A stretch of DNA of 64,000 bases, taken from assembly GCA_000004695.1 (NCBI GenBank), contig CM000151.3, forward strand, positions 7,488,001-7,552,000, given 5' to 3'. The stretch comes from Dictyostelium discoideum (taxonomy: Eukaryota). The first letter of the stretch is position 1. Every line of letters starts with the position of its first letter. Below, piece by piece: positions 51,226 through 51,593 of this stretch. The position numbers and the translations under genes were made by a program. The notes beneath the pieces are model-generated. The model searched no databases. It was not told the origin of the DNA and saw only the letters and a list, made by a program, of their open reading frames with translations.

Positions 51226-51320
51226 TAAGATAGTTTGTCAGACAATAAAAATAAGGAACAAAGTTTTTTGTCGTCATCGTGGTCGGTGTGAGCTGAGGAA
51301 TACATCATTAAACTATCTTA
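51226..51320 (-). ncRNA. Box C/D snoRNA, copy 1
   Basis: On the minus strand: an 11-bp terminal stem (TAAGATAGTTT...AAACTATCTTA) brackets a C box (AATGATGT), an internal C'-like GATGACGA and a D box (CTGA) directly before the 3' stem. The core is about 75 nt and moderately GC-rich in an AT-rich intergenic desert. Confidence 0.55.
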
Positions 51321-51513
51321 AATGAATTTAAAATAAAAATAGTTTTAAAATAAAACTTACCAATTGAAAACAAAGAAAAAAAAAAAAGTTTGGAAAAATG
51401 AAAAAGTAAAAAAGAAAAAGTAATCTATTTTTAAAAAAAGAAAATTTATATTAGAATTTGCTATTAAAATATAATTAAAATAAATTTAATTGATTCAATG
51501 CCATGTATAAATT

Positions 51514-51593
51514 TTTGTCAGACAATAAAAATAAGGAACAAAGTTTTTTGTCGTCATCGTGGTCGGTGTGAGCTGAGGAATACATCATTGAAT
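51514..51593 (-). ncRNA. Box C/D snoRNA, copy 2
   Basis: 74-bp core identical to copy 1 (51517-51590 = 51236-51309), but flanks diverge and the extended terminal stem is absent. Possible second locus or decayed duplicate. Confidence 0.4.

Follow-up and report, generated by a model that had tools for sequence, protein, structure and literature searches.

What RNA does a pair of identical sequences in an AT-rich spacer of Dictyostelium discoideum chromosome 2 encode, and how is that RNA released from its transcript? In the window (the whole 64-kb stretch of DNA that was analyzed), an identical run of 76 nt occurs twice on the minus strand, at 51234–51309 (copy b) and 51514–51589 (copy a), with a spacing of 280 nt and no third occurrence anywhere in the window. 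The pair lies in a 1.6-kb AT-rich spacer, with the ribosomal protein gene rpl10a on one side and, on the other, a plus-strand gene for a Q/H/A/K/P-repeat protein that ends at 50754. Both copies have a GC content of 0.36–0.38, against 0.20 or less in the remainder of about 50850–52450, and they form two GC islands, one for each copy. An earlier note on this DNA had correctly described a GC-richer segment within AT-rich surroundings, but had counted a single island.

Identity and conservation of the repeat pair

An Rfam scan of the whole 64-kb window returned full-model matches to RF01561 (DdR11) at both copies (106.7 bits, E-value 1.6e-19 at 51236–51311; 106 bits, E-value 2.3e-19 at 51516–51591), for which the gathering score is 65. 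Adding 7,488,000 to window positions gives coordinates on chromosome 2 of the reference strain, AX4, and the two copies then coincide exactly with CD11a (chr2 7539516–7539591, minus strand) and CD11b (chr2 7539236–7539311, minus strand) in Supplementary Table S5 of Diesend et al. 2022 (PMC8817022). According to the same paper, the first 17 Dictyostelium box C/D snoRNAs (DdR-x, now CDx) were obtained by cDNA cloning (Aspegren et al. 2004), an oligonucleotide for CD11a/b is among those listed for primer extension and northern blots, and the CD snoRNAs have RNA-seq support. We take CD11 and DdR-11 to be the same RNA, equating them through the number and the Rfam name. That the repeats represent CD11a and CD11b (Rfam RF01561), two box C/D snoRNA genes previously known from D. 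discoideum, is essentially certain: coordinates, strand, 76-nt length, boxes, and the methylation target 26S-Am3279 all agree with the published locus. The snoRNA, its two genes, and its target are thus already known, having been published previously and being present in Rfam. The earlier note had called the pair unannotated, a label contradicted by matches above the Rfam gathering score and by the same coordinates in Table S5. The Infernal search with an Rfam model that it suggested came out in favor of its snoRNA assignment, with both copies matching RF01561 at 106–107 bits versus 65.

CD11a, the upstream copy, corresponds to a mature RNA of 76 nt (51516–51591, minus strand) that contains, from its 5′ end, the C box ATGATGT (AUGAUGU; 51582–51588), the D′ guide (51568–51578), the D′ box CCGA (51563–51566), the C′ box ATGACGA (AUGACGA; 51551–51557), the conserved GTTCCTTA (51532–51539), and the D box CTGA (CUGA; 51518–51521). 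In CD11b, the downstream copy, which is also 76 nt in its mature form (51236–51311, minus strand), the same elements are found at 51302–51308 (C box), 51288–51298 (D′ guide), 51283–51286 (D′ box), 51271–51277 (C′ box), 51252–51259 (GTTCCTTA), and 51238–51241 (D box). The mature RNAs of CD11a and CD11b show a single difference, at position 2 (C vs. U), and the 5′ end of the mature RNA that is specific to copy a is UCAAUGAUG. These results agree with the earlier description of two minus-strand box C/D snoRNA copies about 280 bp apart, each with a C box (AUGAUGU), a C′-like element, and a D box (CUGA), all of which were located in both copies. Its 74-bp core reflects a real repeat, but the exact identical run is 76 nt; likewise, its interval 51236–51309 stands, whereas 51517–51590 is one base off, the in-register partner being 51516–51589. 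A small hairpin (ACAAAA...UUUGU) is predicted within the mature RNA and is not conserved in D. firmibasis.

Syntenic loci were fetched from eight other genome assemblies with the neighboring TRAP1 and rpl10a proteins as anchors. Three tandem copies of the snoRNA are present in D. firmibasis (Rfam DdR11, 94–96 bits) and three in D. purpureum (DdR11, 81–94 bits), and there is one copy each in P. violaceum (DdR11, 31.9 bits), H. album (Rfam SNORD29, 30.6 bits), and C. fasciculata (located by pattern search). Including the D. discoideum pair, this amounts to 11 copies in six species, and three more copies are found in a second D. discoideum assembly. The snoRNA unit is positioned head-to-head with rpl10a in all six species (i.e., on the opposite strand, just upstream of rpl10a). 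Our own sequence model, run with filters off, did not detect an orthologue in the vicinity of rpl10a in T. lacteum and A. subglobosum, or of TRAP1 in P. violaceum and T. lacteum.

Sequence duplication, and nothing else, could be taken to mean that the repeat is non-functional (i.e., a chance motif match, a dispersed repeat, or a mobile element), a reading to which we assign next to no probability. The Rfam E-values near 1e-19 imply that the repeat is not due to chance, and no further copy of the core exists in the 64-kb window, where the earlier note had allowed for a known repeat instead of a snoRNA. Moreover, cloning and detection of the RNA, as well as methylation at its target site, are on record (PMC8817022), and the gene occupies the same syntenic place in six species. 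Published expression and cross-species conservation have therefore already refuted the non-functional reading. The snoRNA core had no match in metagenome scans.

Guide sequence and 26S rRNA target

The published target of CD11 is 26S-Am3279, and the sequence that pairs with it, CCUCAGCUCAC, precedes the D′ box CCGA (PMC8817022, Table 1 and Fig. S6). This site is among the 49 positions found to be methylated by RiboMeth-seq, and the assignment of CD11 to Am3279 is bioinformatic (PMC8817022). Equivalent positions are Am2946 in yeast (guided by snR71), Am4493 in human (U29), and Am2936 in Arabidopsis (AtU29) (PMC8817022, Table 1). We checked the target pairing against the 12 nt of Dictyostelium 26S rRNA printed in Fig. 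S6 of that paper. The D′ guide CUCAGCUCAC, followed by A and then by CCGA, pairs with the printed 5′-CGUGAGCUGGGU-3′ in a duplex of 10 bp including one G-U pair, in which A3279 is opposite the fifth nucleotide upstream of CCGA. In the proposed mechanism, the mature 76-nt RNA would assemble with the box C/D core proteins, the D′ guide CUCAGCUCAC would pair with 26S 5′-GUGAGCUGGG-3′, again with A3279 opposite the fifth nucleotide upstream of CCGA, and fibrillarin would then 2′-O-methylate A3279.

The guide core CAGCTCA is the sole internal block that is invariant in all 11 copies from the six species, and in the cmscan alignments the consensus sequences of snR71 and SNORD29 share it. The C box and D box are likewise kept in 11/11 copies. 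For the D′ box, D. discoideum has CCGA, D. purpureum CCAA, and P. violaceum CUGA, with UUGA shared by H. album and C. fasciculata. Degenerate internal boxes (C′ and D′) are usual for box C/D snoRNAs.

Another element, GUUCCUU(A/G), is located in the D-guide region, 11 nt from the D box, and is conserved in Dictyostelium and P. violaceum. It is complementary to UAGGGAAC with one G-U pair. In yeast and human rRNA, UAGGGAAC lies immediately 5′ of the methylation target. At 11 nt from the D box, GUUCCUU is too distant to direct methylation by the +5 rule. Judging from these complementarities, the probable role of GUUCCUU(A/G) is to provide additional base pairs with the rRNA directly 5′ of the target (UAGGGAAC). 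Yeast snR71 is among the snoRNAs for which van Nues et al. 2011 (PMC3116282) described complementarity to target-flanking sequence, located in the unused guide region. The earlier note had proposed that the guide is the stretch adjacent to the D box. We rejected this candidate because the published target uses the D′ guide, only the D′ core is invariant in six species, and GUUCCUU is too far from the D box. The rRNA complementarity that was anticipated in that note does exist in the form of the 10-bp D′ guide match, whereas the D-adjacent stretch is without an assigned target.

A predicted host gene next to rpl10a

With regard to biogenesis, we consider it likely, judging from the arrangement of signals in the DNA, that the locus is a short non-coding host gene that is transcribed away from rpl10a and carries one snoRNA per intron. 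Each copy would reside in its own intron of ~240 nt, from which splicing, debranching, and trimming by exonucleases would free the snoRNA. The head-to-head neighbor, rpl10a (ribosomal protein uL1; 52393–53303, plus strand), has a D. purpureum counterpart (L10a) that is 92% identical. Its ATG is at 52393 within a 5-nt exon 1 (ATGAG), followed by an intron (52398–52654) and by exon 2, which extends to the stop at 53303.

All parts of the predicted host gene are on the minus strand. Exon 1 and the promoter-proximal region are predicted at 51664–51830, where a conserved motif with a putative role (GGTCGGGCAATAATTT...CACTCG(T)n) is found at 51806–51830; D. firmibasis, H. album, and the second D. 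discoideum assembly have CACTCG(T)n at the equivalent position. The predicted intron 1 (51425–51663; 239 nt) holds CD11a and is bounded by splice-like signals (a slash marks the putative junction): TTG/GTAAGTTTT at 51658–51663, a branch-like CTAAT at 51450–51454, and a 3′ end ...AAAAATAG/ at 51425. This 3′ end is ambiguous in AX4, being either 51425 or a nearer AG at 51461. The nearer candidate (TTTTAATAG/ at 51461) was set aside: it is replaced by TAT in the second assembly, and the distal AG is kept in that assembly and in D. firmibasis. The putative exon 2 (51361–51424; 64 nt) is internal, T-rich, and without an ORF. The predicted intron 2 (51123–51360; 238 nt) holds CD11b and shows the same kind of signals, with TTG/GTAAGTTTT at 51355–51360, CTAAT at 51153–51157, a T-rich tract, and TTAACAG/ at 51123; D. 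firmibasis and the second assembly retain both its branch site and its AG. Here, an alternative 3′ end (AAATAG/ near 51203) was set aside, and the distal AGs follow the conserved CTAAT sites. The first part of the predicted last exon covers 51078–51122, with AATAAA motifs at 51078–51095, and in the spliced models AATAAA motifs stand close behind the last 3′ site. No conserved ORF was found in the spliced models, in which the longest ATG-ORFs are 19–52 aa and unrelated between species.

The 5′ signals at this locus are rare and specifically placed. TTGGTAAGTTTTAT is found upstream of both window copies. GGTAAGTTTTA occurs twice in 64 kb, counting either strand (0.11 expected), each time just upstream of a snoRNA copy. 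These two 5′ motifs are out of register with the duplicated core: their distances to the C box are 52 and 75 nt, and the intervening sequence is diverged. Coding genes elsewhere in the window show the form GTAAGTTT where an ORF gives way to AT-rich sequence. The number of GTAWGT motifs (GTAAGT or GTATGT) in the intergenic region equals the snoRNA copy number in D. discoideum (2), D. firmibasis (3), and D. purpureum (3), with all of them located 45–72 nt upstream of the Rfam-matched start (48–75 nt from the C box) and none on the opposite strand of these three regions (shuffle P = 0.016, 0.0045, and 0.0065, respectively). Window-wide, GTAWGT is not enriched (40 observed vs. 45 expected); coding DNA dominates this count, so that only the count in AT-rich intergenic DNA is informative.

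Across the six species, GTAWGT was found 48–121 nt upstream of the C box in 11/11 copies, and (A/T)CTAAY, including TACTAAC and ACTAAC, 62–99 nt after the D box in 10/11, with TTAAT in place of CTAAY in copy 1 of D. firmibasis. Each of the 11 copies then has a T-rich tract, with the first AG located 20–32 nt past the branch A. The resulting predicted introns are 210–325 nt in length, 10 of the 11 being within 210–242 nt. The combined signals were recovered in at most 0.33% of trials with shuffled flanks (≤0.0033 per copy; distance windows chosen after viewing the data) and at 0/11 copies on the opposite strand. The same three-signal layout is present at all three copies of the second D. discoideum assembly and, independently, at the single copies of P. 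violaceum, H. album, and C. fasciculata. Flanks of paralogues and orthologues are 52–76% identical compared to a background of about 50–65%, and the GTAWGT, CTAAY, and AG sites within them are kept. The first 5′ splice-like site is 213–730 nt from the rpl10a ATG across species. Based on this comparison, we lean towards a conserved, unannotated non-coding host gene that would share a head-to-head promoter region with rpl10a and in which recombination between snoRNA cores would alter the copy number by deleting or inserting entire intron-exon units, the introns remaining intact. The shared layout of the putative host gene and rpl10a is seen in C. fasciculata, H. album, P. violaceum, and three Dictyostelium species.

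The published classification differs from this model. Diesend et al. 2022 classed all CD genes except CD38 as intergenic and treated clusters as polycistronic units (PMC8817022). Under such a reading, CD11a and CD11b would be independent genes or parts of one dicistronic precursor, driven by an intergenic promoter and released by endonuclease and exonuclease without splicing, and the splice-like motifs would be incidental or have another role. In addition to the classification itself, this reading draws on primary transcripts of three two-gene clusters that were detected by RT-PCR and reported in 2004 (cited in PMC8817022), and on polycistronic clusters with RNase III processing being the norm for yeast and plants (as noted by PMC8817022). 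However, an unspliced RT-PCR precursor is expected under both models, and splice-like signals accompany 11/11 copies in six species, as well as the three copies of the second assembly, always on the snoRNA strand. Single-copy species carry the same signals even though they have no cluster that needs separating, and knockout of drnB (RNase III) leaves the methylation pattern largely unchanged (PMC8817022). For CD11, we therefore regard release without splicing as a serious but unlikely alternative. The weak effect of the drnB knockout is compatible with the intron route and is no proof of it. In the literature searched, nothing relevant to a Dictyostelium snoRNA host gene was found, and the CD11 locus has no entry in the supplement text searched from a lncRNA survey (PMC5295588).

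The two copies differ in their potential to form an external stem. Copy b is closed by a perfect 15-bp inverted repeat (CATTTAAGATAGTTT at 51310–51324 with AAACTATCTTAAATG at 51222–51236), of which all but about 2 bp are outside the mature RNA. The predicted copy b precursor (51222–51324, minus strand) is supported by this repeat, by its fold (z = −2.84 for copy b with flanks), and by a compensatory U-A to C-G change in the second D. discoideum assembly. Pairing of the arms of this 15-bp external stem would place boxes C and D next to each other in the precursor. Copy a has no such stem (z = +1.14), as the earlier note had stated; the perfect terminal stem that it described for the other copy exists, but is 15 bp rather than 11 bp in length. 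A stem scan that allowed G-U pairs found at least 6 bp in 8/11 copies across species, and C. fasciculata has a 7-bp repeat (GGTTGGT/ACCAACC) that is further out than the range of the scan.

Given that copy a is stemless (z = +1.14) and was reported with a lower classifier score and terminal stem "No" (PMC8817022, Table S4), it might be a silent or poorly processed duplicate, with copy b the only productive gene, which would be compatible with either model of biogenesis. We consider this quite improbable. The 76-nt core is identical in both copies while their flanks have diverged, which argues for selection or gene conversion, and copy a retains the full set of splice-like signals. Furthermore, intronic box C/D snoRNAs without a stem are processed (Darzacq and Kiss 2000, cited in PMC8817022). 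Because CD11a and CD11b differ only at position 2, the published data cannot yet separate them.

Copy number change and relation to known snoRNA systems

The second assembly labelled D. discoideum (GCA_054859385.1, locus L010) contains three CD11 copies. When AX4 is aligned to it, one block of ~343 nt is missing from AX4, and the edges of the gap are at the first and second snoRNA cores; 5′ sites, CTAAT motifs, distal AGs, and snoRNAs are kept, and the flanks change. Copy a of AX4 resembles intron 1 of D. firmibasis in its upstream flank (0.73) and intron 2 in its downstream flank (0.74), whereas copy b matches unit 3 of D. firmibasis on both sides (0.76 and 0.75). The gap edges and flank identities indicate that AX4 lost one intron-exon unit through recombination between identical cores. 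In the proposed sequence of events, such recombination would have removed one of three ancestral units from AX4 and left one intact chimeric intron.

CD11 is the amoebozoan counterpart of yeast snR71, human U29/SNORD29, and plant AtU29, with which it shares the target position, the use of the D′ guide, and the core CAGCUCA. Outside the guide, similarity to snR71 and SNORD29 is low. The snR71 model scored 25.5 bits (E-value 0.14) and 22.2 bits on the two window copies, below its gathering score of 60, and the SNORD29 model scored 30.6 bits on the H. album orthologue, below its gathering score of 48. Rfam clan CL00051 includes snR71 and SNORD29, and DdR11 is outside this clan (Rfam). The relation of CD11 to snR71 and SNORD29 is functional and positional, not family membership by score.

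Among these counterparts, human U29 is intronic, its host being the non-coding gene UHG/SNHG1, and yeast snR71 is an independent gene. The model for CD11 resembles UHG/SNHG1, GAS5, and Drosophila dUHG in having one snoRNA per intron and short, ORF-less, poorly conserved exons, and in conserving splice signals while the exons drift. The distance from snoRNA to branch site is fairly fixed, as in mammalian host genes (62–99 nt at CD11; the mammalian optimum is reportedly about 50 nt). Unlike those host genes, the predicted CD11 gene has the same snoRNA in every intron instead of different ones, is tiny (1–3 introns of about 210–325 nt), and is head-to-head with a ribosomal protein gene. The RNase III (Rnt1-type) clusters of yeast and plants are like CD11 in being composed of tandem, evenly spaced units on the same strand, an arrangement also described in the literature for Dictyostelium clusters. 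However, CD11 has splice-site-like signals rather than stem-loops, and these are present in single-copy species too.

The published CD11 description is of an intergenic snoRNA and does not include the splice-like signals, the pairing with rpl10a, or the three-copy state in relatives (PMC8817022). The host-gene layout and the rpl10a pairing appear not to have been described in the literature searched, whereas the snoRNA itself was already known; there is nothing new in terms of snoRNA discovery, and the comparative result is of modest value. If the host-gene model is true, the published view that box C/D snoRNAs hardly ever reside in introns in Dictyostelium would have to be revised, counts of snoRNA "intronization" in Amoebozoa would change, and other evenly spaced CD clusters may share an intron-based construction. 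The locus would also represent a clear case of copy-number change by recombination between intron-embedded repeats, and the expression of an rRNA-modification guide would be linked to that of a ribosomal protein gene.

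The rpl10a micro-exon and gene calls in relatives

In the D. discoideum window, the start of rpl10a (52393-52654, plus strand) is made up of a 5-nt exon 1, ATGAG, and an intron of 257 nt (GTAAAT...AATAG), and the same micro-exon start, ATGAG or ATGTC directly followed by GT, is found in C. fasciculata, P. violaceum, and H. album. The deposited rpl10a calls of two relatives begin too far upstream, by about 360 nt in H. album (call at 6001-7633 of locus L007; true ATG near 6361) and about 660 nt in C. fasciculata (call at 6001-7576 of locus L008; true ATG near 6662). Called in this way, each gene extends across the opposite-strand snoRNA together with the predicted intron around it.

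Other RNA matches

Besides the copies of the box C/D snoRNA CD11, the sole above-threshold Rfam match in the window is a tRNA gene (36451-36521, plus strand; RF00005, 57 bits). At the T. lacteum locus (L006), a stretch just downstream of rpl10a (7212-7311, plus strand) matches Dictyostelium Class I RNA (RF01414) below threshold (32.1 bits versus 41.5); it contains the conserved CUUACAGCAAUU motif plus a 44-nt insertion. The predicted intron of P. violaceum carries, downstream of the snoRNA, a second C-box-like sequence, ATGATGA, with CTGT after it (5528-5545 of locus L005, minus strand), around which no complete second snoRNA was recognised.

Surroundings of the predicted host gene

A 349-aa ORF (49705-50754, plus strand), whose 3' end is convergent with the predicted host gene of the snoRNAs, encodes an N-terminal part rich in cysteine and a long QQHAKPA-type repeat tail, and its DNA shows periods of 18, 60, and 138 nt. 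Between the start region of the predicted host gene and rpl10a lies a (TTA)37 microsatellite (51854-51963, 94% matches), the counterpart of which is interrupted in the second D. discoideum assembly (GCA_054859385.1).

A motif that reads GGTCGGGCAATAATTT...CACTCG and then a run of T is conserved upstream of the first predicted 5' splice site, at a distance of about 130-170 nt. It lies at 51806-51830 of the window (minus strand), about 2872-2897 of the second D. discoideum locus (L010), about 7912-7950 in D. firmibasis (L001), and about 6186-6194 in H. album (L007). CACTCG(T)n is common to D. discoideum, D. firmibasis, and H. album, and its P. violaceum counterpart is GACTCGTCG. This motif may represent a promoter or start-site element, in a control region common to rpl10a and the predicted host gene.
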